Shown: positions 10,758 to 55,600, counted from the first letter of the stretch. The stretch is 64,000 nucleotides of DNA from Candidatus Parcubacteria bacterium (GCA_026395685.1 JAPLYG010000009.1:81519-145518), one strand, 5' to 3'. The notes: generated by a model from the sequence alone, not told the origin. Numbers and translations are program-made.

Positions 10758-10765
10758 ATCTCCTT

Positions 10766-13468: not shown

Positions 13469-13537
13469 TGATGATCGATTGGGGGAACCGATCATTTGGT
13501 TAGGGGGCTAGTTACCATCGAGCGTTAGGTTGATGGG

Positions 13538-15308: not shown

Positions 15309-15414
15309 AGTATTAAGGAAGGCTTAACCACAGATTTATTCTCACAGATTGCACAGATTTTTATCAATGTTATCTGTGAATTAAATCAGTGGTTCCGTTA
15401 TACATATTATACCA

Positions 15415-29365: not shown

Positions 29366-30643
29366 TTGGCAATGGCGGCTCTAAACACCCAACCGATAAT
29401 ACCCAATGACTTAGCTGGCCAAGTAGCCAGAGAGCTTAAGTTAAAAAAAGATTCGGTTAAAAACAAAAAATATAACCGCCAGGTCGCTAATCTGCAAAAA
29501 AAGCTATCGTCTATTGCCCAAGATTTAAATTCAGAATCTGAAAATGGAAAAAAGGCGGGTGCAAGACAGCTTCGGGAAGAAAACGCCACTACCTCTGCTG
29601 AAGATACAGAAGCAGAAACACCGCAACCACAGGCGCAACAGGCACCCGGTGCAAAAAATAAGAAAAAAAATATTCCCCCAAAAGATGCCCGGCAAGCTGC
29701 CGGACAAGCAAAAAAATCAGCGCCCGGTAACCAAGCTCAAGCACCTGAAGGCTCTAAAACTACGCCCGCAAATCAAAATAACAACATACCGGCTGAAACT
29801 TTATTGGGCCAAAAACAGCCACAGCAGCCAGAAAACCTAGAAGCTGATACTTTACAAAAAGCCCCTCAACCTGAGGAAGCTGAAGAAAATGCAGCAGCAG
29901 AACCCGAGACAGAACCAGAAGAAGAAGAAAACGAAGAGAATACAGCTCCTTATCAACCATTAACTCAAGATGAAGAAGGAGCAGAAGGCGAAACAAAAAA
30001 AGAAGAAAAGGAGAAGCAAGATGAGGAACCTGAAACACCAGAACAAGCCCCGATGCAAAAAGAAACACCAGCAGAAGGACAACCAGCGCCAACGGAAAGG
30101 CAAGGTGCAGCAGAGGAAATAACTGAAAAGATAGAATCAGAAGAAGAAGAAAAAGAAGCAGAAAGAGATTTATCAAGAGAGCAGCGTTTGGCTGCTATAG
30201 CGGAAAAAAAAGAGGAAGAAAAAGAAGGCAAAGGCGAAGAAAGTCAGGGCGCAGAAGCAGCGAAAAGTCCTCTGGATATTGGCTGGCAACTGGCATCGGC
30301 TAAAGCGTTAATTTGGTCTTGGACTACTTTCTACTATGTGTTACCCCTTCTTTATACAAATTTCCATTTTATCGGAAAATATATTGCTTACAGCAACTGG
30401 TTTTGTAAATTTGGCGAGGAGGTAACTATTACCAAAAAAGCAACGAGCCAAATGGCTGCACAAGTACTTGGTGAGAAGAACGAAAATAATCCCATGGCAG
30501 GAATCCTTGCAGCCGGATCCGAATGGTTAGAAATAATAGCGCTGTTTACTCTTGATTTAATTATTAGTCTGATAATAGGCGGATTTATCTATCTAGTTTA
30601 TTATGTATTGGAACATTATAGCTGGATAACGCATATCCTATAA
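29366..30643 (+). CDS. Acidic, low-complexity (E/K/Q/P-rich) disordered protein with a C-terminal membrane domain
   Basis: 425 aa. Residues about 60-300 are highly charged and disordered (PEEAEENAAAEPETEPEEEENEEN...). The C-terminal 120 aa contains TM helices (IIALFTLDLIISLIIGGFIYLVYYV). Confidence 0.5.
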   Translation: MAMAALNTQPIIPNDLAGQVARELKLKKDSVKNKKYNRQVANLQKKLSSIAQDLNSESENGKKAGARQLREENATTSAEDTEAETPQPQAQQAPGAKNKKKNIPPKDARQAAGQAKKSAPGNQAQAPEGSKTTPANQNNNIPAETLLGQKQPQQPENLEADTLQKAPQPEEAEENAAAEPETEPEEEENEENTAPYQPLTQDEEGAEGETKKEEKEKQDEEPETPEQAPMQKETPAEGQPAPTERQGAAEEITEKIESEEEEKEAERDLSREQRLAAIAEKKEEEKEGKGEESQGAEAAKSPLDIGWQLASAKALIWSWTTFYYVLPLLYTNFHFIGKYIAYSNWFCKFGEEVTITKKATSQMAAQVLGEKNENNPMAGILAAGSEWLEIIALFTLDLIISLIIGGFIYLVYYVLEHYSWITHIL

Positions 30644-30701: not shown

Positions 30702-31964
30702 ATGTCTGACAAATTAAAAAAGTATTTATTAATCATCGGCTTTGTCTTATTAGTTTTATTCCTGGGCTTTTTAATTTATTGGCTTTTTTTCCGGGAAATT
30801 ATTCCCCTGCCCTTCCAAAATATTGTAACCCCTGTCAATAATGCCAATTTTCCCAATGCTAATGAAAAGCCGCCAATAACAAATTTAAACGGGAATGAAA
30901 ATGTAGCGCCTATTAACGAGCAAATATTGCCGGCACTGCCGCCGGTAACCGGCGAAGTGGGTCCCACCATCTCCCCGTTTGCGAATGGCGGATTGACTGA
31001 TTACACTACCCTGGAAACAAGATTTGTTTCTTCCCCGACCTTAGCTGCCAATGGCCGTGATTTGGTTTATTATGACAAAACAGACGGATTCATTTATAAA
31101 CTTATAACAGAAACAGGCGCTAAGGAAAAATTTAACGAAAACCAGTTCAATAATGTTGAAAAAGCCACCTGGTCAAATAATATGGCTAAAGCAGTCTTTG
31201 AATATCCTGACGGCGGTAATGTGGTTTTTGATTTTAATACCAATCTATCAGTGACTTTACCCAGCCAATGGAAAGATTTCTCTTTTTCTCCTGATGGCAA
31301 TAAGCTTGCTTTTAAAAATATAATGCTTGATCCGGAAGAACGCTATATATCCATAGCCAATAGCAATGGCAGTGATTTTACCGAAATCCAGGCCATTGGT
31401 GAAAAAGACAGCGATTTGTATGTTGATTGGAGCCCGAATAATAAATACGTAGCTTTATATCGCGAGGGCATGGATGCCAGCCGTTCAGAAATTTACCCTA
31501 TCGGCTTTAATGATGAAAATTTTGCCAGCATCAGAGTCGAAGGACGTAACCCAAGCTTTCTTTACTCGCCTAGCGGCAATCTTTTACTTTATAGCGTATT
31601 TAATTCCCGTTCTGACTTTAAACCTCTTTTATGGTTTGTCATAAGTGATACTGCCAGCCTGGGCGCCGGACGACGTGATTTGGGACTGAATACCTGGGCC
31701 TCCAAATGCACATTTGCCACGGAAACAATTGTTTATTGCGCAGTGCCACGGACAATGGAAATGGGCACCGGTTATATTCCTTCACTGGCAGATAATACTC
31801 CGGATGACTTTTTCCGCATTAATTTAACAACTACTAATAAGACGATGATTGCCCGCCCGATTTTCAATACCACCGTGGAAAAACTCTTTGTCTCAAGCGA
31901 CCAGAGCAAATTATATTGGTATGAAAAAGGCACAGGCAACATCAAAGAAATTAAATTAAAGTAA
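30702..31964 (+). CDS. Membrane-anchored PD40/TolB-like beta-propeller repeat protein
   Basis: N-terminal TM followed by repeated FSPDGNKLAF / WSPNNKYVAL / YSPSGNLLLY blades. Confidence 0.55.
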   Translation: MSDKLKKYLLIIGFVLLVLFLGFLIYWLFFREIIPLPFQNIVTPVNNANFPNANEKPPITNLNGNENVAPINEQILPALPPVTGEVGPTISPFANGGLTDYTTLETRFVSSPTLAANGRDLVYYDKTDGFIYKLITETGAKEKFNENQFNNVEKATWSNNMAKAVFEYPDGGNVVFDFNTNLSVTLPSQWKDFSFSPDGNKLAFKNIMLDPEERYISIANSNGSDFTEIQAIGEKDSDLYVDWSPNNKYVALYREGMDASRSEIYPIGFNDENFASIRVEGRNPSFLYSPSGNLLLYSVFNSRSDFKPLLWFVISDTASLGAGRRDLGLNTWASKCTFATETIVYCAVPRTMEMGTGYIPSLADNTPDDFFRINLTTTNKTMIARPIFNTTVEKLFVSSDQSKLYWYEKGTGNIKEIKLK

Positions 31965-34289: not shown

Positions 34290-37200
34290 TTATCTAAAAG
34301 TTAAATTGCCTATTAAGTATTCTCCCGTATAACCCCGGTTTTCCTGTCCATTAGACGCTCCCCAGCTGTATATATAGGTTCTCAAAGTTCTAGCGCAACA
34401 TGGGCTTAGGAAATCTGTATCCCTTACATCTGCGACAACTAATATATTTAACGGAGAGCCAACAGTTAATCCGTTATTTGCCGTTAAGTTAATATAGGAA
34501 AAATCACTGCCTCCGTAAGTAACATTAGGGAAATATCCGGTACCCATTAAATTTTCAGGAGCCACTGAATCTTTATAAATTTTAACCTCTACAGTATTGT
34601 CTCCGATTTGACCAGGCTCACTGCCAATTAATGTACCGTTTAACTTTAAAGCTAACTGCGTTAAAACAGTATTTTGATTACAATCGGCAACTATTTGCGC
34701 GGCAGTCCTACCGATGATAATAGAGGAGCTATCTTTGGATCTAATTAGACGGTTCCCCGTTTCACTGATAGCGGGATTAAGTGTTACTGCTGTTGCTGTT
34801 CGAGAACATTGGCATTGCCCTGATACTGTATTCATTCCATAGCCTGGCGCGCATAAAAAGTTGCATGTGCCCATACTTAAATTATAATTTTTTACATATA
34901 CAGGCTGCCATTTCGTGCCGGACCAGGCTTGAGTATAAGAACTTTCGCCGTTCCATTGCTGACCGGTATTCAAAGCGCCGCAGGAGATTGTCCTGGTCAG
35001 AGCCTCACACTTTTTTGCAGAGGCATTGTACTCATAGTTCATCTTGCATTTAAAATTGCAGGAGCCCGCGGTTGTAGCATTATAATTTTTTACATATACA
35101 GGCAGCCATTCCGAACCGTTCCAGGTTTGTGTGTATGAGCTGTCGCCATTCCATTCCTCACCGTCATATAAATCCCCGCAGGAAGCTCCCTGGGTCTGGG
35201 AGCATTTATGCGTACTCACATCACTGCATTCTCTGCATATTTGCCCCATTGAATCTATTGATGTTTCCGCGCACTTTTTTGATTGGCAGATGCTCTGGGT
35301 GATTGTTCTGGTATATTCCCTCATGTTTCCTTCCGGGTCTAATTTACAGATTAACTGATCTCCTATCGGCCTGCAGTCCGCATTGCTCTTGCAGTCATTC
35401 AGCCACACCGCCCTGCCAAGTTCGCATATGCCCAAATCAGGCGCTGTCTTGTTTATTATTTTATCAGATTTCGTTGCTATGCCCAGCAAAAGTCCGACAT
35501 GATCCCTGAAAAAGTCACAATTATTCTCATCTAAGCATTTACTTTGGATGAGTTCGGATCTTAGGGGTGTATCCGCCTTGTATGCGGTTTGGAGTGATAT
35601 CATGAGCCTTATGATTTGGCCGATATTAGCTTTATTAAGGAGTGATGATCCTAAAGCGCCTTCCGTAAGTATGTTGCCAATGCAAGAATCTGTCTGATCC
35701 ATTTTTCCGCACCCGTCCACTGCCATATTTAATGTTCCCCGGTGATTACTTACAGCTCCTCCGTCAGAATCTGTCGGAACATTCACCGTAAGGGGGTCAT
35801 TTTCCAAAATGCCTGCCGCTACTACCTGATATTCTCTGCCGTCATTGCCTGTGAGTTTTAAATCAGCGCTTTGGTAGCATATTGCCGGGCATCCGCACAG
35901 ACCTCCAGGTACACCGTCGCAGTTAGAATCCCCGCACTTAAGGTCGCCCTGACTAAAATAAGGATAACCATTATTAATAGAATCACGAATATCCCAAATA
36001 TTTTCATTGGCGTTGTCATCGTACGGATTAGAAACAAAATCCCAAGGCGTTGTCAGGCCAGCTGTCGCAAGAGAAGTGAATGTTTCTATACTTTTCATCT
36101 CCGCAGTTGTCTTGCCCGTGGTGCCGGAAGGGCATATGTCCCTTGATATGCCGGATATTTCAGTGTCCCAGAAGCTATTTTGGCAACTTTCAGGTAGGCC
36201 ACCAGCTACGACTCCCGCTACATTAAACCAATCAGGAGTGGCTTCTATTTTTCCGGCGACATAGGAATTGGAAATTAAACCGAAATTCATTCCTGCTAAA
36301 CCTCCTATCGTAGGAGTCAAGGATGTTGACTTAACAAAAACTCTGGAGTAAGAATTTGAAATTTGTCCCTCATATTGATTTTCTCCCAATAATCCACCGC
36401 AATATTGATTACAATTAACATCCCCTGTCGCATAAGAATTTGATATATCAGCATCATTTTTGCCTACTATTCCCCCCGCATATGTGTCACCTGTAATATC
36501 TACATCTTCCAAGCCGACATTTTTTATAATAACCCTTCCGCCTAATCCGTAAGCGGATGTCTTACCAAATAAACCAATGGGCTTTTTAAAATTAGAATCC
36601 GGCCTGTTTACATATAATCCTTTGATAATATGATTTTGTCCGTCAAATGTTCCTGAAAACGGCGTTCCTTCGGTTCCAATCGGTTCAAACCCCGCGCCGT
36701 TGTTCCAATTTACTGTATCAGAACAGTCAATATCATTGGTTAATACATAATTATTATGGATGGGGAAATTATTAATGGCTTGCAATTCCTCGCAGTCAGA
36801 TATTGATATGGTTTGTGGAGTAATTGATTTTGATTTCATTACAACAATCGCGCCAAATTCCATACCGCAGCTGCCATAATCAATTTTTAAATAACCGTTA
36901 TCATGACTACCAGCATCTGCGCCCCAACTGTTCTTTAATATCCAATAGCCTTTTTCGTCATTATACCCTACTAGGACTACAGCATGGTTTGCCATGGGGG
37001 GATCAAATGAACATCTAAATATGCCATTAGAATCAAAAGTGCCGTTAAGATCCCAAGAAAAAGTTACGCTAAGAGGCCCGTAGTTAATAAGATATTGTTT
37101 AATAATTGCAGAATCAGGAGGCAAAGATAACCACTGATTTATTTTTACTACCCTGCTTTGCCAGTTAGCGCAACGGTCACTACAAGTAGCATCACTGCAT

Positions 37201-38372
37201 GAATTATTAGCTCTATAATTGCAAGTGGTGCTGTCAGGCTTACATGAATTGCCGCACATGCACCCAGATCCATCTATATAAGGCATGCAAGCTTCATCAG
37301 GTATCCCGAAGTCCTTAATAAATGTCAGAGCACCCCCAGACCATCCTCCGCAACAATTTCCGGCATTAGAACAATCAGAAACCAGATATTCTTCTGAAAG
37401 ATCCAAATCAAGGTCAGGATTATTGGCATCAATATTGGCAACTGCCTCCGTAGCACCCACAGTTCCAAATGCCCAGCAACTGCCACAACTCCCCTGATTT
37501 TTTACAGAAGTCATCCAATTGGCACCATTGTAATCTCTCCAGTCAAAGGATGTGGGAAGTGATCCTGAATCGCCTAAAGTGGTCATTTCCACAGTTTGTG
37601 CTTGTGCGGTGTGAGATAACAAAGCAGCCTGTATCTGCTTATCTATAGATTCTGTTTGCATAGACACTGATGGTTCTGTTTTAGATATATTGTTTACCTC
37701 CCCGCACGGTCCGCAATAGCCTCCCTGGTCAAGAAGAGCTTTGACTGCTTCTTCAGCGACACACAAAGTTTTTTCAGCGGCACTTCCAGGCTTGCTGCAG
37801 ACAAACGCCTTGCCTTTGCCGCAAGGAAATTTGCTGCAAGTCTTGTCCAAATTGCAGCTGGTCGCGGACTTTTTATATAAATCCATTAAATCAACGACTG
37901 ATCCGACTTCCTGACCTTTTTTATCCACGCAAACCGCGTATTCCCGGGAAAAAGGATTTTTGCCGTCAGTTTTTATTTTCAAGTCATAGCCTTTTTGGGC
38001 GCAGTATGAATGCTCTTTGCCGCAATATCCCTGGAGAAATTTCCATTCCTCGCATTCCACTTTGTCCGGAAAAATACAGACGCCATATTGGCCATTTTCA
38101 TTTTCCCTGATTTCATAGGAATAACCCAGTTCTTTGCAATGGACTGCCGCGGGATTGGCAAAGCCCCTGCCGATTCCATCAGCAGGAATTTCAGCAGGTT
38201 GAGTTGCGACCGGTTGAGGCTTGGTTGCGGTTTCAACTGTCTTTTTAGGCTTTTGCATTGCCGGAATAATAGCAAAAGCCAAAGCGCTTACTCCGAGCAA
38301 AACAGCTGTCGCAATTGCCAGCTGAATATCAATGCTTGATGTTGTTTTGGTATAAGTTTTCATAGAGATCAA
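34290..38372 (-). CDS. Giant secreted papain-like cysteine peptidase (C1A) with DUF333 domain(s) and Cys-rich repeats (1360 aa)
   Basis: Signal/TM at the N-terminus. DUF333: GFANPAAVHCKELGYSYEIRENENGQYGVCIFPDKVECEEWKFLQGYCG. C1 catalytic Cys box: NQGSCGSCWAFGTVGATEA. His/Asn region: ANHAVVLVGYNDEKGYWILKNSWG. Two tandem ~70-aa Cys/Trp repeats lie near the C-terminus. Confidence 0.8.
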   Translation of the reverse strand: MISMKTYTKTTSSIDIQLAIATAVLLGVSALAFAIIPAMQKPKKTVETATKPQPVATQPAEIPADGIGRGFANPAAVHCKELGYSYEIRENENGQYGVCIFPDKVECEEWKFLQGYCGKEHSYCAQKGYDLKIKTDGKNPFSREYAVCVDKKGQEVGSVVDLMDLYKKSATSCNLDKTCSKFPCGKGKAFVCSKPGSAAEKTLCVAEEAVKALLDQGGYCGPCGEVNNISKTEPSVSMQTESIDKQIQAALLSHTAQAQTVEMTTLGDSGSLPTSFDWRDYNGANWMTSVKNQGSCGSCWAFGTVGATEAVANIDANNPDLDLDLSEEYLVSDCSNAGNCCGGWSGGALTFIKDFGIPDEACMPYIDGSGCMCGNSCKPDSTTCNYRANNSCSDATCSDRCANWQSRVVKINQWLSLPPDSAIIKQYLINYGPLSVTFSWDLNGTFDSNGIFRCSFDPPMANHAVVLVGYNDEKGYWILKNSWGADAGSHDNGYLKIDYGSCGMEFGAIVVMKSKSITPQTISISDCEELQAINNFPIHNNYVLTNDIDCSDTVNWNNGAGFEPIGTEGTPFSGTFDGQNHIIKGLYVNRPDSNFKKPIGLFGKTSAYGLGGRVIIKNVGLEDVDITGDTYAGGIVGKNDADISNSYATGDVNCNQYCGGLLGENQYEGQISNSYSRVFVKSTSLTPTIGGLAGMNFGLISNSYVAGKIEATPDWFNVAGVVAGGLPESCQNSFWDTEISGISRDICPSGTTGKTTAEMKSIETFTSLATAGLTTPWDFVSNPYDDNANENIWDIRDSINNGYPYFSQGDLKCGDSNCDGVPGGLCGCPAICYQSADLKLTGNDGREYQVVAAGILENDPLTVNVPTDSDGGAVSNHRGTLNMAVDGCGKMDQTDSCIGNILTEGALGSSLLNKANIGQIIRLMISLQTAYKADTPLRSELIQSKCLDENNCDFFRDHVGLLLGIATKSDKIINKTAPDLGICELGRAVWLNDCKSNADCRPIGDQLICKLDPEGNMREYTRTITQSICQSKKCAETSIDSMGQICRECSDVSTHKCSQTQGASCGDLYDGEEWNGDSSYTQTWNGSEWLPVYVKNYNATTAGSCNFKCKMNYEYNASAKKCEALTRTISCGALNTGQQWNGESSYTQAWSGTKWQPVYVKNYNLSMGTCNFLCAPGYGMNTVSGQCQCSRTATAVTLNPAISETGNRLIRSKDSSSIIIGRTAAQIVADCNQNTVLTQLALKLNGTLIGSEPGQIGDNTVEVKIYKDSVAPENLMGTGYFPNVTYGGSDFSYINLTANNGLTVGSPLNILVVADVRDTDFLSPCCARTLRTYIYSWGASNGQENRGYTGEYLIGNLTFR

Positions 38373-38438
38373 TTATATTGTTATTGGTTTAATTATAGCA
38401 CAAAAGGCGACCTTATACCTCACTTCGGGGGGGACAAG

Positions 38439-38476
38439 ACGGGGCTCCGCTCCGAAGCTTCGGTGCGGAGCCCCGT
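38439..38476. repeat. 38-nt near-perfect GC-rich palindrome (REP-like hairpin) in the intergenic region
   Basis: acggggctccgcTccgaagcttcggTgcggagccccgt has only two central mismatches. It shares the GCGGAGC/GCTCCGC core with the hairpins at 25561-25597 and 19880-19900. Confidence 0.6.
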
Positions 38477-41383: not shown

Positions 41384-41531
41384 TATGATAAATTATTGAT
41401 TTTATTGATAATATGTATTAATAATAGCCTATTAACCCAAACTTTTCAACAAAATAAAAAGACAGAAATCCCTAAATTTCCGTCTTTCTCACATAACTTT
41501 AAACTTTGCACTTTAAACTTTACACTTCAAG

Positions 41532-41603
41532 TGCCCCCGCTAGGAATCGAACCTAGATCACAAGATCCGCAATCTTGTGTTCTATCCATTGAACTACGAG
41601 GAC
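41532..41603 (-). tRNA. tRNA-Arg (anticodon GCG)
   Basis: The reverse strand reads GUCCUCGUAGUUCAAUGGAUAGAACACAAGAUUGCGGAUCUUGUGAUCUAGGUUCGAUUCCUAGCGGGGGCA. It folds into a cloverleaf with a 7-bp acceptor stem (two G·U pairs), D stem GUUC/GAAC, anticodon stem CAAGA/UCUUG with loop UUGCGGA, and T arm CUAGG-UUCGAUU-CCUAG. No CCA is encoded. Confidence 0.7.
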
Positions 41604-42365: not shown

Positions 42366-42469
42366 ATATAAGCATTATACAATTATTTCATTAGATAAAC
42401 AAACAAATGTCCCTAAAGTTTGACTAATTGCAGAAAATAAGCTAAAATACTATACATAATAGGGCTTTT

Positions 42470-42562
42470 GGAGAGGTACCCAAGAGGCTGAAGGGGCGGG
42501 TTTGCTAAACCTGTAGGTCGGAGTTTTTTCCGGCGCGGGAGTTCGAATCTCCCCCTCTCCGC
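42470..42562 (+). tRNA. tRNA-Ser (anticodon GCU)
   Basis: GGAGAGG...CGGGU-UUGCUAA-ACCUG with a long variable arm (UAGGUCGGAGUUUUUUCCGGC), T arm GGGAG-UUCGAAU-CUCCC and acceptor 3' strand CCUCUCC. This is a class II tRNA. Confidence 0.8.
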
Positions 42563-42714
42563 CCAGATACAAGTTTATGAGGCAATGTGTTTGAACGGTG
42601 GAAGTTGCATCAATCTATTTTAACCGTTAATTGGTTCTATTTCATAAACTTGTATCTGGGCTCCGTTTGTCCCCCTGTTTTATACAACTAAACGAAAACG
42701 AATAACGACATTCA

Positions 42715-42801
42715 GGAAGGGTGGCAGAGCGGTTGAATGTACCGGTCTTGAAAACCGGAGTCCCGTTTACGGGACCGTGGGTTCAAATCCCACCCCTTCC
42801 G
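42715..42801 (+). tRNA. tRNA-Ser (anticodon UGA)
   Basis: GGAAGGG...CCGGU-CUUGAAA-ACCGG with a long variable arm (AGUCCCGUUUACGGGACC), T arm GUGGG-UUCAAAU-CCCAC and acceptor 3' strand CCCUUCC. Confidence 0.8.
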
Positions 42802-42809
42802 CACATTAA

Positions 42810-44212: not shown

Positions 44213-46144
44213 TTAAATAGGCAAATCTTCAACACCGGCTACCTTAGGAGTTACTTTACTTCCAGGAGCAACCTCCTTATTCCCCTGTAATTCAAATTCC
44301 CTTTTGGCAGCTTCAATCTCCAAAAGCTGACGGGGATCACTGGTAATAAGCTGGTCTTCAACATATGAGGCAACGACCTGAATAGCTGCGTGCTTGCGTC
44401 CGGCAAAGAAAATTCCTTCCCCTACCCCGCACTCCAAAAGCAGATATTTTTCACCTTCGGTAAGCACAAAAATTTGTTTAACCGTTTCAATCGAAGCGGG
44501 TGATTGTTTCAATAATAGCTGCATGGCTGAATTGGTTACAATTGCCTTGCCATAAGGATTGTTTAAAAAATCATTGACGTCCTGGGTAATAGTGGTGACT
44601 CCCAAATAATATTTGCGGCATCTTTTTACCAGGGCATAAATAAATTTTGCCGAATCTTCGCTTGTCATCAACCACCAAGCCTCGTCAATAACCATAATTC
44701 TTTTTTTTGTTATGGATCTGACAACATTCCAGATATAATTTACAATTGTATAAATTGCTATCGGCCTTAATTCGTCTTCCAAGTCTCGGACAGAAAACGC
44801 TACTAATTGATTGTTCATATCTACATTAGTCGGGGCATTAAACAAGCCGGAGAAAGTGCCGTCAGTATATTTTTTCAGACGGATACTCAATGATTCTGCC
44901 CCCAGCATACCAGATAAAATATTGTGCAAATCCTGCATGACCGGCACTTCTACTGTCGCTAAATCTGATTGCGGAGTAATATCTTTGCTGGCATAGGTCT
45001 CGATCAAAGCCCGATCCAGAATGGAATCTTCTTCCACGGTGAGCTTGCCCAGCATTAGGCGCAACAAGCCTTTTAAGGTAATAACCGCGCTGCGGATAAT
45101 ATCTTCGGTGGAGGCATCGCCGATTGATCTGGGCAAATCGAAAGGATTTATTTTATTTTTTGAAGACAAAGAAATATCGACAAAGGTGCCGCCGACTGCT
45201 TCAGTCAGGTGCAAATATTCTCTTTCCGGATCAATAATAATCACATCAGTTCCCAACATCAGGCTGCGTAAAACTTCTAATTTAACAGCGTAGCTTTTGC
45301 CGGCGCCTGAAGTGGCAAAAACCACAGCATTGGCATTTTGCATGGAAAAACGATCAAATAAAACCAAGCTGTTATTATGTCTGTTAATGCCGTATAAAAT
45401 ACCATCATCTGAGGTTAGCTCTGAAGAAATAAAGGGAAAAGAAGAAGCGCACGGTGACGTATTCATGTTAAAGGAAATCGTCAATTCATCATCGCAAAGC
45501 GGCAAAGTGGAATTGAAGCCCTGTTCTGACTGGTAAAAAACCTTGCGGCTATAAATCAGCTTACCGCCCAACATTGACTCGATTTCACTGGTTAGCTGAT
45601 CCATTTCTTCCTTGCTATTGGTATAAAACGTTATATAAAGGCCAAATTGAAAAAAATGCTCAATGCCCTGAGTCAGGTCATCCCTTAATTTTTCAATGTC
45701 TTTGATACCGGTTTCCAAAATCGGATCGCGGGGTGCGCCTTTTTCAACATCTGACATTAATTGCGCTTCCATATTGCCGACCCTCTTTTTTAGCTGCTTT
45801 AGGATAATATCAGCTTTGACAGGATAAAAATACATAGCCACATCCAAAGTCCTGCTCAAATTCACAATTGGCGTAAACCAGCCAACTGTTATATAGCGCG
45901 GATAATTAACCACAAATATGGTACGCACAAACTGATCTCCAAGCATTATCCAAAACGGCTTAACTTCAAAAGATGCCGGGGCAATCAAATCCTTCACTTC
46001 CACTAAGCCGCGGCGATAAATTTTCTCTTCCTGCAGAGTTACTGTTTCGGCCTTGCTTTTTACCGGCTCTTTTGGTCCTTTGCCTTTAAGCGGTACCGGC
46101 GACCGGGGGGCTGCTTGATTGAATTGACTGATATCAAGTGCCAT
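44213..46144 (-). CDS. VirB4/TrbE-family type IV secretion ATPase (ATPase core)
   Basis: Walker A (FATSGAGKSY) and Walker B (RIMVIDEAWW), plus conserved IYRRGLVEV...NYPRYITVGWF and TQDVNDF regions typical of VirB4/TraE/PrgJ. Confidence 0.75.
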   Translation of the reverse strand: MALDISQFNQAAPRSPVPLKGKGPKEPVKSKAETVTLQEEKIYRRGLVEVKDLIAPASFEVKPFWIMLGDQFVRTIFVVNYPRYITVGWFTPIVNLSRTLDVAMYFYPVKADIILKQLKKRVGNMEAQLMSDVEKGAPRDPILETGIKDIEKLRDDLTQGIEHFFQFGLYITFYTNSKEEMDQLTSEIESMLGGKLIYSRKVFYQSEQGFNSTLPLCDDELTISFNMNTSPCASSFPFISSELTSDDGILYGINRHNNSLVLFDRFSMQNANAVVFATSGAGKSYAVKLEVLRSLMLGTDVIIIDPEREYLHLTEAVGGTFVDISLSSKNKINPFDLPRSIGDASTEDIIRSAVITLKGLLRLMLGKLTVEEDSILDRALIETYASKDITPQSDLATVEVPVMQDLHNILSGMLGAESLSIRLKKYTDGTFSGLFNAPTNVDMNNQLVAFSVRDLEDELRPIAIYTIVNYIWNVVRSITKKRIMVIDEAWWLMTSEDSAKFIYALVKRCRKYYLGVTTITQDVNDFLNNPYGKAIVTNSAMQLLLKQSPASIETVKQIFVLTEGEKYLLLECGVGEGIFFAGRKHAAIQVVASYVEDQLITSDPRQLLEIEAAKREFELQGNKEVAPGSKVTPKVAGVEDLPI

Positions 46145-48565: not shown

Positions 48566-51500
48566 CTAAGTTTTTTCCAAAGACTTTACATTAGAGGCAA
48601 TATCAGTCAAAGAGCGCCTGACTCTGTCCTTGTCCTGTATCGCCAGCGGATTAGTCTGGATCTCCCGGACTAAATTGGTCATGGAATCTCGCAGTTTATT
48701 AGCCACTGACTGGTCAAATCTCGCACCCAAGCTTTCCTCCATCTTTTTGAGTCCGCTATCAAGATTTTCCTGCATTCTTTTCACTCCCCTCAAAAGCAAA
48801 TCATTGGTAGCAGCACCATCAACGGCCGTAGTACCGGCCTTTATAAAATTATTATAATAATTAGAAACATTTACTGTCGTGGTAGTAGAACTAGGTGCTG
48901 CCTCCGGTCTTGGAGCTGGAGCAGGAGCTGGAGCTGGCGCAGGTGCTGGTTCAGCAGTTCCTGCTGGCGCAGGTGCTGCGGGTTTTGGCTTAGGTGCTGG
49001 AGGAGGAGTTCCTGCTGGCGGAGGAGTCCCTGCTGGCGGTGGTGTAACTGGTGGCTCTTCCTCTTCCTCAGGTTCCTCTTCAGCTGATATATCTACATCT
49101 TTATCTCCTCTTTTTCTGGGAATAGCAAACTTATAGAAGCCAATACCTTGGGCTCGGCTCAAAATACCATACATTTGTCCGCGCTGTCCCTTTAGGTCTT
49201 TACCCTTCAACTCTTCTAATTCTCCAATTAATTCCTCAAGCTTATCAATCTCCATAAATTCAGGAGAATAACCGGCAGTTTCAACTTCTTCCCTGATAGA
49301 ATATGCCAACGCCTCTAACCCTGCCTGAGCACTGGTAATTTTATCAGGAGTAGCTTGACCACTATTAACCTTGGCCAAAAGTCTTTTCAATCTGTCAGAA
49401 ACTTTGCTTTCAGAAGTATTCTTAATCTCACGCTGGTTAATGACATCTCCGCCATGCTCAACATAATCCGCATTGATTTCATCAAAATTTTCTATCTGTC
49501 CGACTTCTGTTGTAGCCATTTTCTTCATACTGCGGGAAACTATTTCTTGTGCCTGTTGCGGAGGTACACCTTTAACTGATTCTAATAAATCCGGCATTTC
49601 TTTTTCCATTTTACTAATAACTTCAGCTGCATTTCGTTCTTGCGGAGTAACTGCTTTGCCCTCACGCATCTTATCCTTAATGCCTCTATAATCATAAAGC
49701 GAGTATTCTTCGCCTTTAATCTTAAATTTCTTTCTTTGTCCGCTTTGATTAAAGAAGATAACTTCAGCCATTTCCTTGCTGGTTTCTCCAGTGACAATAT
49801 CATGGCCAGTACCCTGGACATATTTACCGCCACTAGTCTTATAGCCTTCCTGCAAAGCCTGCATATTTTCCGTGGAATACAACTCTTTATGCATCAAATC
49901 CATCTGCTCTACTTTGCCTTTAATAAACTTATCTCTTGCCTCACCGGTTAAACCTTTTTTGCCTGCTTCTTCTTCAGCATATTTCCTTCTGCCTGCTTCA
50001 TCCTTAGAAGCTGTAATATAGTGCAGCTGCATATCTTCTTCCTTATCCTTAATGAATTTCTTTTTTTCTTCCGGAGTAGTTATTCTGCCTTCTTTTTCCT
50101 CTTTATCTGCTAAATCTGCTACGAGCTTCTTCCTCTCAGCGTCTGTTCCTGTTATCACTTTAATCAGATCACCGGTTGCTTTCTTGCCATTTTTCAGACC
50201 CTGTTCGCCAGACTGCTTCATGCGACCGGCATTTTTTGACAGACCCATCCACAACGCCATTTTTTGCGCAATATTTCCTTCAGCCAGACTTCCTGCCTGC
50301 TTATTATTCATCGCCTTAGTTACCTTTGAAGTATCAGCTGCAGCCGCACTCTTCATCGTGTCTTTAGCTTTTTGGATTTCACCTGCCGTACCAGCCTGCA
50401 CCAGTTGAAATTCATTGGTTTCAGGATTTCTGACTACAGCTGAAACAGATATGCGGTAACCGGTTTTTTCCTCATGTTTATCCTCCCATTTTTTTGATAA
50501 TGCTTCCATATTGGCAACACCTCCTTTAGCTGATTTTTCCAGATCAATTACTTTCTTGCCGGTGGTTTCATCTGTTTTTGTTTTAATACCATAATGTTCA
50601 AAAACACCCAAGTCTAAAGCTTTCTGCATATCATTATCATCAATTAAACCCTGCTCACCTTTGAGATTTAAAAGCGCCAGAAAACGATCGCCGGTAGCAG
50701 TTTTCATCCGCTCGTTAAGTATTTTCGGATCTTTATCTGAACCAACCAGGCGTTCTTGTTTTTCATAATTCTCAATTTCTTTTTGTCTTTGTTCCACCAA
50801 AGCGCCCGGCTTGCCGCCGATCCATTTTTCTACTTGGGCAGTCGAACGCTCTCCCAGAGTTTCACGTCCTTTTTTGGTGGCTACCAGACGAATACCTTTG
50901 GAAATAGCGCCAGAGATGCCACCGCCACGTTCTACTCTTTCTAATCCTTCCTTAGCTGTTAAGCCGGCATATTGTCCGACTTTTCCGGCTGACCATTTGG
51001 CTGTGCGCTCCATTCTGCCCAAAGTCGCATCCTGGATCTTGCCTGCTGCTTTGCCTGCATAGCTGGCGCCCAAAACTTTCATTTCAGAAGTAAATTTCAA
51101 ACCGGCGACCAGCATAATAATGCCCAGCATGTACTTGATAACATAATCCAGACGCCCGGCTTTGGAATTCGCCACTGCATCATCCAGATTTGCCTGTCCC
51201 AGTCCGCCTTCACTGACCTTGGCCAGTTCCGTGGCATACATTACCGTATAATTATTGTTCAGTGTCAGAATTGAAATCCATAAAAAGAAAGCTAAAAGCG
51301 GCCCAACCAGGCAGTATTCTATAAAACTGTTTAACCAACGGCTGCCATAACCTCCGATTCTGCCGCTGACTCCGGTAAAAGCCATAGAAGCAAAGGCAAG
51401 CGGTGAAAAAACAACCAAAACCCAAAGGACAATTATTCTAAAAATTAAAATAATCAGAAAGATCGCGACCACAATCAAGGCGACGACCACATACATGAGC

Positions 51501-52606
51501 CCCAGTAATTTGGAAGAAATCAGCTGGAAGCTGGTTAAGCCTTCATTATTGGTAATCGGATCCCAGATATCGCGCATGCCTAACCCTTTAAATAAGTTCT
51601 CCCCGAGGATATCTTTATAAGCATTAACAAAAGTAAACATCACAACCTGAGACAGGTCGATGATCAGCCCGCAAATTGTACGGGAAAAATTAACCACCAC
51701 GGCCATGATCAGCAGTTTCGGCAAAAGCTTCTGCCACTGGTATCTTTCAATTTTCAGCACCGTAACAAAAGCCACAAAAAGCAAAGCCAGCACGAAAAAC
51801 ATATTGACCAGATCGCGCAAAACAATCCACCCCTGAATAACATAATATGAATTGATAAAATGATTAAATTTACTGACATTAACCACAAGCTCAAAAAATG
51901 CCACTAAAAGTTTGCCCAAAAGGCCGATAACTATATTTATAATAAAAGCCAGCACCTGGATTACAGCATTTGCCTCCTTGTTCCCCTCCTGGGATGTTTG
52001 CCCGTCACCGGTGCCTGTTGATGCAGGCGCAGGCGTCTCAGTCGCTGGGCTAACTTTAGGCTTACAGCAAATTGGCGCAGCCGCCTCACTACAATCCATT
52101 ACCGGAATCTCATCTTCAGTAGTCGTATCACAGCTAGGGCCGGGGCTACAATTGCCTCCTGCTGCAGCACATGCTGTTCCCGGAGCTGTCGGCGCTAAAG
52201 GCGCTGCCGTAGGTTTACAACAAACAGGAGTAGCCCCACTACATTCTGAGCCAGGAGCAAGAGTATCAGGACCAAGACAACCGCCATTAATTACACACGT
52301 GCCATTTTCAGTTGCTGTGCCTGTAGGTGTCTTGCCAGTACAGGGGGTAGCTGCCGGAGCTGCGCAACAAAAAGTCTCAGTGGCTGCACAAGCAGTCATG
52401 CCGGCAGGTACTGTGGTAATAGTCAAATTACTGGGAGTACACACACTTGCAGAACAAGTACCATTTTTCGGTATACCAGCCAAAGTACCATTGCAACTTG
52501 CAGCCAGCACCGGGCTTGCTACAAACAGAAGCAAACCCAGCCCCAGTGTCAGACCAGTCAGGAAAAGGAATGTTAATTTGTTTTTAAGAAAAGATAACAT
52601 CACCAT
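48566..52606 (-). CDS. Polytopic VirB6/TrbL-like membrane protein with Cys/Thr-rich N-terminal ectodomain and a long disordered, Pro-rich C-terminal tail (1346 aa)
   Basis: Signal peptide, Cys-rich region, then six or more TM helices in residues about 210-450, consistent with VirB6-like topology. This is followed by ~800 aa of K/E-rich coiled sequence and PPVTPPPAGTPPPAGTPPPAPKPKPAAPAPA...PAPAPAPAPAP. Confidence 0.45.
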   Translation of the reverse strand: MVMLSFLKNKLTFLFLTGLTLGLGLLLFVASPVLAASCNGTLAGIPKNGTCSASVCTPSNLTITTVPAGMTACAATETFCCAAPAATPCTGKTPTGTATENGTCVINGGCLGPDTLAPGSECSGATPVCCKPTAAPLAPTAPGTACAAAGGNCSPGPSCDTTTEDEIPVMDCSEAAAPICCKPKVSPATETPAPASTGTGDGQTSQEGNKEANAVIQVLAFIINIVIGLLGKLLVAFFELVVNVSKFNHFINSYYVIQGWIVLRDLVNMFFVLALLFVAFVTVLKIERYQWQKLLPKLLIMAVVVNFSRTICGLIIDLSQVVMFTFVNAYKDILGENLFKGLGMRDIWDPITNNEGLTSFQLISSKLLGLMYVVVALIVVAIFLIILIFRIIVLWVLVVFSPLAFASMAFTGVSGRIGGYGSRWLNSFIEYCLVGPLLAFFLWISILTLNNNYTVMYATELAKVSEGGLGQANLDDAVANSKAGRLDYVIKYMLGIIMLVAGLKFTSEMKVLGASYAGKAAGKIQDATLGRMERTAKWSAGKVGQYAGLTAKEGLERVERGGGISGAISKGIRLVATKKGRETLGERSTAQVEKWIGGKPGALVEQRQKEIENYEKQERLVGSDKDPKILNERMKTATGDRFLALLNLKGEQGLIDDNDMQKALDLGVFEHYGIKTKTDETTGKKVIDLEKSAKGGVANMEALSKKWEDKHEEKTGYRISVSAVVRNPETNEFQLVQAGTAGEIQKAKDTMKSAAAADTSKVTKAMNNKQAGSLAEGNIAQKMALWMGLSKNAGRMKQSGEQGLKNGKKATGDLIKVITGTDAERKKLVADLADKEEKEGRITTPEEKKKFIKDKEEDMQLHYITASKDEAGRRKYAEEEAGKKGLTGEARDKFIKGKVEQMDLMHKELYSTENMQALQEGYKTSGGKYVQGTGHDIVTGETSKEMAEVIFFNQSGQRKKFKIKGEEYSLYDYRGIKDKMREGKAVTPQERNAAEVISKMEKEMPDLLESVKGVPPQQAQEIVSRSMKKMATTEVGQIENFDEINADYVEHGGDVINQREIKNTSESKVSDRLKRLLAKVNSGQATPDKITSAQAGLEALAYSIREEVETAGYSPEFMEIDKLEELIGELEELKGKDLKGQRGQMYGILSRAQGIGFYKFAIPRKRGDKDVDISAEEEPEEEEEPPVTPPPAGTPPPAGTPPPAPKPKPAAPAPAGTAEPAPAPAPAPAPAPRPEAAPSSTTTTVNVSNYYNNFIKAGTTAVDGAATNDLLLRGVKRMQENLDSGLKKMEESLGARFDQSVANKLRDSMTNLVREIQTNPLAIQDKDRVRRSLTDIASNVKSLEKT
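48879..49060. repeat. Tandem GC-rich microsatellite-like repeats encoding the PAPAPA/PPAGTPPP tract
   Basis: (gctgga)n/(gcaggt)n and two-and-a-half copies of ggaggagtYcctgctggcgg lie inside the 1346-aa gene. Confidence 0.6.
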
Positions 52607-52612: not shown

Positions 52613-55600
52613 TTAATTGCACATAGAACCCTCGCAGCGGGAACCTGGGTTTAATGGATTCGGAATATTACACATATGGCAGTCAGGATTAAACTGTGTC
52701 GGCATACAGAAAGGCAACCAGGTATTACTATAAGTATAAGCAACCATTTTACACTTGGAATCTGCCACACAAGGAGCAGCCTCATCATATTCTTCACAGC
52801 CCAAAGTATCCTCTTTTATAATACAACCCATTGCATAAGTGCCAGCTGCCCAATGCTTACCCCAAAAACACTTAGGATCACGGGAACAAAGGAATCTGGT
52901 AGTCCATTTAGCACAGCCTGAAGAATCAAATCTGTCAACGCAAATACCGGTGGTCCAAGAGCAAAGGCCTAAAGTAGCATCACAATCTGCTTGAGATGTA
53001 TTCACGGAGCAATCTGTCCTACTGACACATGCAGGAGCCTTGGGCTCACAGCCAAATTGGTTTAGGCAACCAAACCATTGCTGATCAAGATTAATTTTAT
53101 AATCGCAGGTTGTTTTTGGCTCACAAAAATCTCCAAGAGTTGCTGCTGGAGTTGCTGTTGGAGCCTTCCAGTTACAAGCATCATTAGCTTGACAGGCACT
53201 CTTAAGCTGAATCGTTGTACAAAGATTCACGCATTGCTGATTGGGAAAATCCCAATAACAGCCATCATTGCCTGCTTCATTGCAGGTATCCTCGCTATAT
53301 TTTGTTTCACACGCAGAGGTGCAGAGATAATCTTCTCCGACCTCGCAGGTTGAACTATTTTTACATGCATTACTGGTTAATGGGGTTATATCTGATTTAC
53401 AGCAGACGCTGCCATAAGCAGTACATTGGATTCCCGGAGATAAAATATCTGTTTCCGCACAACTGCCAGAAGCCTGGCACTGGCCATTTATATAGGTATA
53501 ACCCGGATCGCCGACAGCTACTCCTGAACATAGCTGTGCAGTTACCAGCCCGGTAGTAGACATTTCTATACATTTATTTTCACATTTTAAATCTTGCTCA
53601 TTCCAGGAACAGTTTGTATTGCAACCAGCTGGATCTAAAATCAAATTGCAGGTATCACGGCAAACATCAGGCCGCCACTGACAAAATTTATCATCATTAC
53701 AAACTTTGGCATTAGGATTTGGAAGACAGCATATTGGAAAGTTATTATTCGGACATTTATTATCTACTGGAAACTCGTTAGATCCGCACTTACCCAGATT
53801 TTTTCTGCAGATACCGCCTGCATCTTTACAGGTTCCTACCGGAAGACTTTGTACTGCTGCCGGATATTTCTTATCGCACTGTAAATTACAGCTCCACCTC
53901 CAGCGATCTTTATCTGCCCAATAAGCATTCCAGGAGCAGTAATCTGCTTTTTGAGTCATACAAATCTCGCCTCTGGGGCCATGAGAATCAATATTTGTCG
54001 TACCCAAACCGCTATATCTATAAGTACAAATATCTTCCATGCAATAATGATTGAAATAGCTGCAATAAGTGGCAAGCGACTCACAGTCTTTTTGCTTTGT
54101 AGCTTCAGTGGCATTAATATTTGGCGTCGTAAGACTGCAAATATTGAAAAGGCAGGTAGCTGTGGCCTCATCCCAGGTACACATATCCTGGCCTGACTCA
54201 GTTACATCTTTTTCGCAATCTGTCTTATTCTTATGATAATCACACACATTTTTTATACATTGGCCGTTGTTCCACGCACAATAAGGCAGAAGTTCACACT
54301 TAGTTTTATTTTTCAGCAAGCCGCATTCGTCAATTTTAAAAGGAAAGTAAGTTAAACAAGCATTGGCGCCTTCACGATAAATTCCCCCATACAAGGGATT
54401 CAATAAATCATATTCCAGGCAACGGCCCTGAAAACCTAAATTTGTTTTAATGGTTTCAACAGCGCTGCATTGTCCGATGATTTTTTCATCAGTATTTTCC
54501 TCACTCAAAGGAATAACGCATTGGGGATTATTTTTTGTAACCCCCTGGCATAAGCGTCCCTCAACTGCTTTGTTGCCGGTACAAATTTGAGGCTTATTGT
54601 TTGATTCGCTTATAATTTTATTTAAAAATCCATAAGGAAAATAAGTAATGGTTCCTGTTGCTTCAGCCTTGTCATAATTACACCCGTCGGCAATATTTTT
54701 TAGGGTTAAAGTAGGACTAAAAAGATTAACCACCTTGCTATACTTGCTCAGCCGGGAAATATCATAAGGCAAAGGAGAATCTTCTTCCGGAAATATTTTG
54801 CAGACCGGGCTGATAAATCTTTGATCTGGTTCGGCAATGGGATCAACACTGGTATATTCCACGGGATACTTGGCAAACAAATATCCGTCATTAATTTCCA
54901 CTTCAACCGGATAGCGGTCAGGAATAGTATAACCGGAGTAATCTCCCAACTCCCAGCGTTTAATCGCATCATCCATGCCGGTTCCGCTTCCTGCAAATCT
55001 GGTAACATATGTGGCGCGGGTAATTTTTAATGGAGCCGAAGGTGTGGCTTTTGTATACCTGACTCCGTCAAAATTTGAGTGAATTAGAGGATCAGTATTA
55101 CCGGTATTTATTGTCTTGCTTATTTCCGTTGTCCCTTCAGAATTATAGGTAATAACCTGAGTCTGTCTGCAATTGCCTAGTCTGTCAGTTTCTGAACAGA
55201 TCACCCATTCTCCGCAGTCACGATCTTTGCTGACTTTTATAGTCTCAATATTATTATTACTGGTCTGATTTTTAAAAGCGACACAGCCTTTATTCCAATC
55301 AACGCTGGAACATGATGAACGGTCAATATTATTGCCGTTGTCAATTACATGATAAATCTGGCCGGAAGATTGATCCTGATTGATTGTCTGGAAACTGGAA
55401 CACCCGCTATATGCGCTCTGGCACTCACCGGTATAATTTATATACCCAGTATCAGTAACCTTAAGAATGCCAAAAGGATTGGCCACGCAAAGCCCTGCTC
55501 CTGAAGAAAGCCAGATGCCATGCTGATTTTCGCAATCAGCCTGACCTGTAGCTGACATGCCCTTACCGCACTGTTTCAAATCACCCACCCAGATACCGCC

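Follow-up and report, generated by a model that had tools for sequence, protein, structure and literature searches.

A predicted exported papain-family protease of a Candidatus Parcubacterium with a DUF333 pair in the propeptide position

Papain-family proteases are generally made with a pro-region that they need for folding, so a member that carries an uncharacterized domain in that position raises the question of what the domain does and where the enzyme acts. We addressed this question for a 1360-aa protein encoded in a Parcubacteria/CPR MAG, within a stretch of 64,000 nucleotides that was analyzed as a whole (the window). The initial annotation had described a giant secreted papain-like protease with a DUF333 module, and the ORF, the profiles and the sequence motifs bore out every structural aspect of this description. 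The protein is of an ordinary kind, a predicted exported C1A cysteine protease that has already been deposited and automatically named, and its architecture is modestly interesting.

The gene and its predicted export signal

The protease gene is a single, uninterrupted CDS on the minus strand at exactly the coordinates first assigned to it (Table 1); the fragmentation that the initial annotation had considered as a possible flaw was observed neither here nor in the deposited version. That version, MCX6740104.1, from a Candidatus Parcubacteria MAG and labeled "DUF333 domain-containing protein", starts at an ATG (38363) three codons downstream of the TTG and comprises 1357 aa. The gene has its own terminator, and the terminator of the upstream gene lies between the two genes, which makes the protease gene a monocistronic unit. 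The candidate promoter element in Table 1 was not listed by a consensus promoter scan. The neighboring genes encode RadA, a DNA glycosylase, a DksA-like ORF and RecG; no secretion or attachment gene is linked to the protease gene in its neighborhood in the window, and several giant, unannotatable and probably surface-located proteins are encoded in the same window (48566-52606 and 52613-60205). The GC content of the gene is 0.42-0.43, compared with 0.34-0.46 across the window, and neither this value nor the identity differences between homologues (45-53%) is decisive for a recent horizontal transfer into the CPR genome. In the sequence clusters, the target's 90% cluster is represented by a 50-aa entry (P0249) of unrelated sequence, which is a clustering artefact.

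Table 1. Features of the protease locus (window coordinates)
Feature	Residues (aa)	Position	Strand	Basis
Candidate promoter element of the extended -10 type, TGCTATAAT, ~30 nt before the ATG		38392..38400	-	read by eye
Whole ORF, 1360 aa from TTG 38372	1-1360	34290..38372	-	translation, deposited CDS
Putative export signal: n-region Lys5 and Lys9, hydrophobic core, A-F-A site	4-34	38271..38363	-	hydropathy and motif scan
Pro/Thr/Ala-rich spacer	35-69	38166..38270	-	translation; model start pLDDT <50
DUF333 unit 1, invariant Cys 79, 99, 107, 117	70-117	38022..38165	-	profile, family alignment, model
DUF333 unit 2, truncated, invariant Cys 124, 148	118-166	37875..38021	-	homologues, model, alignment
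Lineage-specific Cys-rich insert (7 Cys) with predicted helices	167-271	37560..37874	-	no homologue match; low pLDDT
Peptidase_C1 (papain family, C1A)	272-510	36843..37559	-	Pfam, PDB alignment, family alignment, model
Catalytic codon	Gln293	37494-37496	-	
Catalytic codon	Cys299	37476-37478	-	
Catalytic codon	His463	36984-36986	-	
Catalytic codon	Asn481	36930-36932	-	
Family-conserved disulfide-rich insertion within the protease	362-401	37170..37289	-	invariant Cys; positional alignment; pLDDT 57-83
GLUG domain, homologous to the IgA1 protease/Zmp-type surface protease domain	511-800	35973..36842	-	profiles
Cys-rich middle region, 17 Cys, orphan	801-1050	35223..35972	-	profile and sequence searches
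Two tandem ~70-aa Cys/Trp repeats	1051-1122 and 1116-1187	34812..35222	-	Smith-Waterman, profile search
C-terminal domain	1188-1360	34293..34811	-	profile search
Stop codon		34290-34292	-	
Intrinsic terminator, 16-bp stem and T-run, 19 nt past the stop codon		34236..34271	-	

Export is predicted from the N-terminus, where the only hydrophobic segment of the protein (aa ~16-39) reaches a KD value of 2.57 and A-F-A occupies aa 32-34. Hydropathy and regex scans of the whole protein revealed no further TM segment and no lipobox, LPXTG or PEP-CTERM motif, and by its sorting signals the protein does not qualify as a sortase-, lipoprotein- or PEP-CTERM-anchored surface protein. The segment may be a Sec signal peptide that is removed by cleavage, or it may stay on the protein and anchor its N-terminus in the membrane (aa 16-39); because the positive charges KPKK directly follow it, the topology and cleavage call are uncertain. 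The 64 Cys residues of the protein are typical of what would be expected in an extracytoplasmic protein. An exported and, by prediction, active protease is well supported.

The catalytic domain and the conserved DUF333-C1 module

The match of Pfam Peptidase_C1 (PF00112) to aa 272-508 (E=1.6e-39) extends over profile positions 1-216 of 220 and, at 136.7 bits, exceeds the cut-off of 20.7, which places the domain in C1A; in the PDB, the domain aligns to DPP1 and cathepsins. A family alignment of 92 sequences shows no variation at Gln293, Cys296, the catalytic Cys299, His463 and Asn481, and Trp483 is conserved in at least 90% of the sequences. Gln293, Cys299, His463 and Asn481 correspond to papain Gln19 of the oxyanion hole, the Cys25/His159 dyad and Asn175 in a positional alignment with papain and cathepsin B. 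No substitution of the catalytic Cys or His, which the initial annotation had held possible on careful alignment, appeared among the 92 sequences, and a pseudo-enzyme was ruled out because every catalytic residue is intact and invariant. The protease is therefore predicted to be catalytically competent. The AF2 model (pLDDT >90 over the protease domain) shows the papain-like two-lobe fold, and Foldseek superposed it on mature cathepsin K and cruzain with a target-normalized TM of 0.80-0.85 and E down to 3.7e-17.

The target thus shares its fold and the Gln-Cys-His-Asn machinery with papain, cathepsins L/K/S/B and dipeptidyl peptidase I (MEROPS C1A), along with the motifs QGSCGSCWAF, NHAV..VGY and KNSWG, a mature N-terminus of the form LP.SFDWR and production with an N-terminal extension after the signal peptide. 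It differs in three respects: the DUF333 pair sits where the I29 (ERFNIN/GNFD) or cathepsin-B-type propeptide is found, an 850-aa C-terminal tail is added, and a disulfide-rich insertion of ~25 aa directly follows a conserved "PY" at the position of the cathepsin B occluding loop, as judged from the positional alignment. In cathepsin B, the His110-His111 pair of this loop binds the substrate C-terminus. The insertion of the target is similar in size and lacks any His, let alone a His-His pair, and a cathepsin-B-type exopeptidase was ruled out as a class assignment.

The DUF333 match (PF03891, aa 70-115, E=7e-18 with the whole protein) joined that of Peptidase_C1 in the Pfam search that the initial annotation had recommended. 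It scored 65.1-74.3 bits against a curated cut-off of 25 and follows the membership pattern NPA..C...G.C...C..W...G.C. A second, weaker stretch appeared when the N-terminal piece was scanned by itself; this unit (aa ~116-166) is kept in 116 of 120 homologues (E ~1e-19) and is modeled as alpha-beta3-alpha with the same topology as unit 1, without the last Cys loop. To speak of one and a half DUF333 repeats, as was done at first, is thus fair. "Hemolysin" is merely a historical label of DUF333 (PF03891 and the COG label). A literature search, which included COG3042, PF03891 and YoaF, found no paper characterizing DUF333, and an apparent mention in a papain-like classification paper refers to DUF3335.

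In 119 of the 120 best homologues, DUF333 precedes C1 at a constant spacing (median 82 aa), and these 119 share the layout of signal peptide, one and a half DUF333 units, short linker and C1, with variable C-terminal tails. We recognize this layout here as a conserved module. Its carriers include Anaerolineales, Zixibacteria, Gemmatimonadota, Ignavibacteria, Acidobacteriota and Methanosarcinales in addition to CPR/DPANN genomes. By sequence, the target is a member of an uncharacterized DUF333/C1 peptidase clade of MAGs, in which P0001 (Actinobacteria), P0010 (Zixibacteria), P0052 (Dehalococcoidia) and P0080 (Nanoarchaeota) have an identical N-terminal layout, including the Cys-rich insertion in C1, and a module identity of 40-60%. 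DUF333 and C1 occupy one ORF at 30 genome loci and are split only by one stop or frameshift at three more. A separate, neighboring inhibitor gene was rejected: no separate DUF333 ORF was found at 49 loci with DUF333-less C1 genes, in flanks of up to 3 kb per side.

Neither I29 nor Propeptide_C1 (PF08246, PF08127) matched the whole protein or aa 60-271 at E<=1-10, and the protein thus lacks the I29 (ERFNIN/GNFD) or Propeptide_C1 that precedes the catalytic domain in a classical C1A zymogen. Where the target has its insert at aa 167-271, the relatives have a linker of 25-35 aa rich in Pro/Ser/Glu; because of this short linker, nothing else in the relatives could serve as a propeptide. The insert of the target is the likely region of zymogen processing. 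DUF333-less sister proteases have a short pro-like segment of 60-90 aa at the DUF333 position, and a domain swap with I29 in that sister clade was discarded, as no I29 and one weak Propeptide_C1 hint (E=0.043) were found. The AF2 model of aa 60-520 reached a pTM of 0.81 although ~28% of the chain is of low confidence, and we therefore infer that the DUF333 pair and the protease may be placed as one rigid unit. From this position and this modeled packing, we infer that the DUF333 pair may act as a pro-domain or chaperone.

The DUF333 pair could instead be a permanent binding or anchoring module, attached to the envelope near the N-terminal anchor or to a ligand, in which case the protease would be active as made or regulated otherwise, by redox or through the Cys-rich insertion. 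Structure comparison detected no resemblance of the DUF333 fold to a known propeptide or inhibitor. Moreover, DUF333 is widespread in bacteria as a small stand-alone (lipo)protein without an adjacent C1 protease, such as the E. coli lipoprotein YoaF, which is still named "putative hemolysin", and this distribution points to a binding role of a more general kind. The tandem is also more conserved (57% mean column identity) than typical propeptides, and an insertion of 105 aa separating DUF333 from the protease is tolerated in the target. However, in a clade without any other propeptide, DUF333 stands exactly where all C1A zymogens have theirs, and bacteria and archaea alike keep the two domains strictly fused and in the same order. 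The high pTM implies that the pair packs rigidly against the protease, and papain-family enzymes generally require a pro-region for folding. We therefore regard a permanent module as rather unlikely, if a serious contender.

The C-terminal tail

The tail begins with a GLUG domain that is absent from the initial annotation. GLUG (PF07581) matched in two to three stretches with 39.6-42.9 bits against a cut-off of 20.5, which supports membership, and 120 homologues cover aa 511-800 with E down to 2e-53. The GLUG profile reached PDB entries 3n6z (E=3.8e-19) and 7uvk/7uvl (E ~1e-11); searched by sequence, the tail had no PDB match, and solely this profile led to the IgA1-protease structures. The target shares the GLUG-motif domain with PDB 3n6z and with the streptococcal IgA1 protease/Zmp (M26) surface metalloproteases. 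Like the latter, it would be a large protease, secreted or at the surface, that carries a noncatalytic GLUG module; unlike these zinc metalloproteases, it is a cysteine protease without LPXTG, and its GLUG domain sits C-terminal to the catalytic domain. Elsewhere, GLUG accompanies clostripain, subtilase, transglutaminase-like and M26 domains.

The Cys-rich region that follows (aa 801-1050) has no Pfam match, no PDB match and essentially none in 1.84 billion representatives. The next two units each contain four conserved Cys and a WN...TQ.W.G..W.P motif, and share 36 of 71 residues (51%) and 136 of 213 codon-aligned nucleotides (64%) between positions 35007-35222 and 34812-35027 of the window. 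The initial estimate of about 65% DNA identity at 34790-35210 was thus essentially right. Windowed Smith-Waterman alignment gave the repeats a score of 183-199, whereas shuffled sequences scored 35 +/- 5 and at most 53; self-BLAST of the protein returned the diagonal only. Sequence searches indicate that the Cys/Trp repeat forms a genuine family that Pfam does not model, with 318 representative clusters and up to ~40 copies, co-occurring with lectin-like Lcl_C, EGF and beta-propeller (SBBP) modules in large extracellular, adhesin-like proteins. A carbohydrate-binding function, as raised initially for these repeats, is conceivable. The C-terminal domain has one remote relative (P0371, aa 1231-1340, E=1.3e-14). 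These searches mark aa 167-271, aa 801-1050 and the larger part of the C-terminus as near-orphan; within the set of the 120 best homologues, the aa 167-271 insert, GLUG, the Cys/Trp repeats and the orphan regions occur in the target alone. The tails of its relatives in the DUF333/C1 clade differ, consisting of parallel beta-helix, P-domain, PPC, CARDB, dockerin or FN3.

Such a tail invites the idea of a dedicated attack or attachment effector of an episymbiont, whose tail binds the host surface while the protease degrades host surface proteins. The Parcubacteria/CPR origin of the MAG, the adhesin-type modules (GLUG and Cys/Trp repeats), the restriction of the tail to the target's lineage and the presence of DPANN and CPR genomes among the module carriers are consistent with it. 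However, the catalytic module is common to many free-living anaerobes, and that of the target is, at 49-53% identity, slightly closer to their versions than to that of the CPR representative, with which it shares 45%. No observation links the protein specifically with host dependence. The gene neighborhood offers no secretion or attachment linkage. A host effector role is speculation and, in our view, improbable. Of the earlier proposal of a secreted effector or nutrient-scavenging protease, the plausible part is an exported, predicted-competent protease feeding an auxotrophic CPR cell, whereas no specific tie to host dependence emerged. The homologues that were to be sought in episymbionts do occur in CPR/DPANN genomes, but also in many free-living groups, and the module is thus not episymbiont-specific.

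The tail could also serve a surface-protein maturation protease or an adhesin, in which C1 processes the cell's own surface proteins or only itself. Cwp84 of Clostridioides difficile is a surface C1A protease that processes the surface proteins of its own cell and is made as a zymogen with C-terminal surface-binding domains. The target resembles it as a bacterial, probably extracellular C1A protease with an apparent zymogen form and noncatalytic C-terminal domains that may bind a surface, and the organism is monoderm-like, with several giant probable surface proteins encoded in the window. However, Cwp84 is built with a conventional propeptide and with CWB2 repeats that bind the wall, whereas a profile scan of the target detected no S-layer or cell-wall-binding (CWB2/SLH) repeats, and the tails of its relatives (dockerin, P-domain, PPC, CARDB, beta-helix) resemble those of general secreted degradative enzymes. 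We consider a maturation function the least probable of these explanations, with only a slight chance of being correct.

Putative mechanism and significance

Overall, we favor, with moderate confidence, an exported and catalytically competent C1A cysteine endopeptidase that is made as a multidomain precursor, with DUF333 as its pro-region and the tail for targeting. The N-terminal hydrophobic signal would direct Sec passage across the membrane and, if uncleaved, would tether the precursor to the cell. The disulfide-bonded DUF333 pair, directly after the signal in the place of an I29 or cathepsin-B-type propeptide, would act as an intramolecular chaperone and/or inhibitor. Activation and release would follow from a cut in the flexible, nonconserved stretch that separates DUF333 from the mature N-terminus (LPTSFDWRD, aa 272). 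The ~850-aa tail, composed of GLUG, the orphan Cys-rich region, the two Cys/Trp adhesin-type repeats and the orphan C-terminal domain, would be kept on the mature enzyme and position it on a substrate or surface. In a reduced-genome Parcubacterium, the protease may break down extracellular proteins, possibly on the surface of another cell; the acquisition of peptides and amino acids in this way is the most likely physiological role, argued only from lifestyle. Our literature search found no paper linking C1 peptidases with CPR.

None of these points overturns current understanding. The target is a clean example of a widespread clade of bacterial and archaeal MAGs with DUF333 in place of the classical propeptide, and this clade provides a concrete and cheaply testable hypothesis on DUF333 function. 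More broadly, the DUF333 tandem, which is conserved from Chloroflexota to DPANN archaea, could represent a type of pro-domain or inhibitor of papain-family proteases that differs from I29 and has so far gone unrecognized; we put this forward tentatively, as possible rather than probable. If true, thousands of stand-alone DUF333 proteins, YoaF among them, could be cysteine-protease inhibitors or protease-binding proteins, and a long-standing DUF would receive its first function. In addition, the analysis documents a family of extracellular Cys/Trp repeats of ~70 aa that Pfam does not cover. For CPR biology, the protein is a candidate for surface interaction and a candidate route by which a cell of minimal biosynthetic capacity obtains peptides.

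The gene and its catalytic domain

Overall, the evidence supports that the protein of ORF 34290..38372(-) is the precursor of an endopeptidase of the papain family (C1A), with both its export and its activity being predicted. As placed in the initial annotation, the ORF encodes 1360 aa from a TTG start at 38372, from which residues are numbered here. The public record, MCX6740104.1, begins three codons later at ATG 38363 (1357 aa) and is named 'DUF333 domain-containing protein', nothing more; no obvious Shine-Dalgarno sequence precedes either start codon. Because the frame is uninterrupted in the window and was deposited as a single CDS, the gene is whole and not fragmented. The target stop codon is followed after 19 nt by an intrinsic terminator (16-bp stem and T-run), and the DksA-like ORF upstream ends in its own terminator; therefore, the gene looks monocistronic. 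A candidate extended -10 element, TGCTATAAT, lies at 38392-38400. Upstream of it, the AT-rich intergenic region contains a perfect 34-nt GC-rich palindrome (GGGGCTCCGC-N14-GCGGAGCCCC, 38441-38474), which is found nowhere else in the window (chance expectation 0), lacks a T-run and may bind a protein or act as a stability element.

A Pfam scan of the whole protein returned three families (Peptidase_C1, DUF333 and GLUG). A PDB sequence search retrieved dipeptidyl peptidase I and cathepsins L/K/H/S, with which the QGSCGSCWAF (Cys), NHAVVLVGY (His) and KNSWG (Asn) segments all align. Across 92 aligned relatives there is no variation at Gln293, Cys296, Cys299, His463 or Asn481, and conservation of Trp483 is at least 90%. 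In the AlphaFold2 model, which covers aa 60-520, pLDDT exceeds 90 across the protease, and the model superposes on the mature forms of cathepsin K and cruzain (target-normalised TM scores of 0.80-0.85). The initial annotation had called a papain-like protease and named a substituted Cys or His, or a broken gene, as grounds against it; the catalytic residues are intact and the gene is unbroken, and therefore the call stands. A disulfide-rich insertion common to the family sits at the position of the occluding loop of cathepsin B but without the His pair of that loop, a comparison that is a lead only.

A hydrophobic segment occurs only at the N-terminus (aa ~16-39; A-F-A site, aa 32-34), and a motif scan of the whole protein found no lipobox, LPXTG or PEP-CTERM motif. 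Judging from this segment together with 64 Cys, the protein is almost certainly extracytoplasmic, the segment serving as a cleaved signal or an anchor.

Features of the target protein, of its surroundings and of three related loci
Feature	Position	Strand	Details
DUF333	aa 70-115		Pfam E=7e-18
Insert between DUF333 and protease	aa 167-271		105 aa, 7 Cys
Peptidase_C1	aa 272-508		Pfam E=1.6e-39
Disulfide-rich insertion in protease	aa 362-401		~25 aa, directly after conserved PY; common to family
GLUG domain	aa 511-800		Pfam GLUG motifs and homologues
Cys/Trp repeat 1	aa 1051-1122; window 35007-35222
Cys/Trp repeat 2	aa 1116-1187; window 34812-35027
RadA	neighbour of target		MCX6740102; residue-for-residue match to deposited protein
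DNA glycosylase	neighbour of target		...103 of the MCX6740102 series; residue-for-residue match
RecG	neighbour of target		...106 of the MCX6740102 series; residue-for-residue match
ORF upstream of radA	29366-30643	+	extremely Glu/Lys/Gln/Ala-rich low complexity, hydrophobic C-terminal part
ORF upstream of radA	30702-31964	+	N-terminal TM segment
tRNA Arg-GCG	41531-41603		ARAGORN and Rfam
tRNA-Ser(GCT), 97 nt	42469-42565	+	ARAGORN only; Rfam tRNA model silent at gathering threshold
tRNA Ser-TGA	42715-42802		ARAGORN and Rfam
TraG/VirB4-like P-loop ATPase	44213-46144		PF19044 E=7e-27; few genes from giant ORFs
Giant ORF, 1346 aa	48566-52606	-
Giant ORF, 2530 aa	52613-60205	-	MCX6740115.1, 'hypothetical'
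Locus L022, Pacearchaeota	2878-6918		DUF333 and C1 in same frame, single in-frame stop between
Locus L038, deltaproteobacterium	1044-2309		DUF333 and C1 in same frame, single in-frame stop between
Locus L046, Methanosarcinales	2803-5198		DUF333 and C1 parted by frameshift

DUF333 and the protease as a module

The main addition to the earlier account is that DUF333 and the C1 protease form a conserved unit. In a search among 5.8 billion proteins, DUF333 lies N-terminal to C1 in 119 of the 120 best homologues, starting at a median residue of 54, with the protease starting a median of 82 residues past its end. (In the 90% protein collection, the target is missing among its own homologues because its cluster is represented by P0249, an unrelated 50-aa ENA peptide, a clustering artefact.) When one genome for each GTDB species was scanned, the complete module appeared in Ignavibacteria, Anaerolineales, Dehalococcoidales, Gemmatimonadota, Acidobacteriota, Zixibacteria, Desulfobacteraceae and Paceibacterota (CPR), as well as in Methanosarcinales and in Nano-, Pace-, Aenigmat-, Nanohal- and Micrarchaeota. 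At 30 loci both domains share one ORF; at three more (L022, L038 and L046), all that parts them is one in-frame stop or a frameshift. These breaks could be sequencing errors, recoding or a true two-gene split, and a genuine split would be relevant to DUF333 working in trans. At 49 loci whose C1 genes are more distant and lack DUF333, the flanking sequence fetched (at most 3 kb per side) contained no separate DUF333 ORF.

What had been described as half a DUF333 (aa 116-165) proved to be conserved in 116 of 120 homologues (E about 1e-19). Scanned alone against Pfam, this segment is recognised as a second, weaker DUF333 stretch, and two independent AF2 runs modelled it as a second alpha-beta-beta-beta-alpha unit. 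The stand-alone model reaches pLDDT 92.3 and pTM 0.83. The pair holds six invariant Cys, four in the first unit and two in the second. Foldseek found no solved relative of the fold (best E=0.33), our searches of the literature library found no paper characterising DUF333, and no support was found for its 'hemolysin' label.

Papain-family enzymes are synthesised as zymogens, in which an N-terminal pro-region blocks the cleft and assists folding. Neither I29 nor Propeptide_C1 is detectable in the target clade, and in relatives DUF333 is joined to the mature N-terminus (P.SFDWR) by just a 25-35-aa, non-conserved linker rich in Pro/Ser/Glu. DUF333-less sister proteases carry at the same position a 60-90-aa pro-like segment (motif IQ.AI...GA.WTAGET..S.LS.EE...LG), with one weak Propeptide_C1 hint (E=0.043). 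Moreover, the AF2 model of aa 60-520 attains pTM 0.81 though about 130 of its 461 residues fall below pLDDT 70, a value hard to reach, we infer, without the protease and the DUF333 pair being placed as one rigid body. Given the missing propeptide families, the short linker and this modelled placement, the DUF333 pair would most likely serve as the pro-domain of this protease clade.

Insert and tail of the target

None of the 120 homologues has a match to the insert that separates DUF333 from the protease, and the AF2 model is of low confidence there. Beyond the protease, the tails of relatives are highly variable (parallel beta-helix, P-domain, PPC, CARDB, dockerin, FN3 and others). In the target, aa 511-800 are covered by 120 homologues (E down to 2e-53), including proteins of Methanolobus and Bacteroidota T9SS proteins, and the GLUG profile matches the solved structure 3n6z, a 'putative IgA1 protease' (E=3.8e-19), and the S. 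pneumoniae IgA1 protease (7uvk/7uvl). Since other proteins combine GLUG with M26, clostripain, subtilase or transglutaminase-like domains, it is a recurring companion of extracellular proteases.

The remaining tail (aa 801-1360) is nearly orphan, with one match in a word-indexed search and 318 matches at E<=1e-3 when 1.84 billion representatives were searched exhaustively with HMMER. Among the 150 listed of these 318, the best-scoring match falls inside the Cys/Trp repeats in all but one (protein P0371). The two repeats reported initially are real (identity of 51% for amino acids and 64% for codon-aligned DNA; alignment scores of 183-199 vs a shuffled maximum of 53). They belong to a family whose unit is about 70 aa long and contains four Cys (consensus ...C.GLP.NAEWN...S.TQTWNGSEW.P....YN......C.F.C..NY.WNG..C), with 809 copies across the 150 proteins listed (median 4 and maximum 42 per protein). 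The repeat has no Pfam model of its own, just borderline DUF6087, DUF5874 and MBG_3 scores, and co-occurs with Lcl_C, EGF and SBBP modules. Because its named carriers are MAGs labelled just 'bacterium', with no classification, and one lies on a 2.07-Mb contig, specificity to CPR is not demonstrable. No family was found for aa 801-1050 or the C-terminal domain, the latter having a single remote relative that covers aa 1231-1340.

Surroundings and probable role

Elsewhere in the window, the two adjacent giant ORFs have zero Pfam matches; together with the TraG/VirB4-like ATPase, they may form a CPR surface or secretion/pilus-type cluster. The two ORFs upstream of radA likewise have no Pfam family. 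GC content is 0.42-0.46 at 10001-16000 vs about 0.35-0.40 in the flanks, and Rfam found no rRNA there.

The initial annotation was correct in describing an exported protease, but its proposal of an effector for a host-dependent lifestyle, though possible, gained nothing specific in its favour. The module is widespread among free-living anaerobes, the target gene lies among DNA-repair genes, and the target module is marginally closer to those of Acidobacteriota, Gemmatimonadota and Ignavibacteria (49-53% identity) than to the CPR representative (45%). The target is best described as an exported papain-family protease of a clade that is visible in databases and uncharacterised. Its role would most economically be extracellular proteolysis, the tail guiding the enzyme to a surface or substrate, and in this Parcubacterium the protease would plausibly serve peptide scavenging. 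What merits testing for the DUF333-C1 clade as a whole is the proposed pro-domain role of DUF333.
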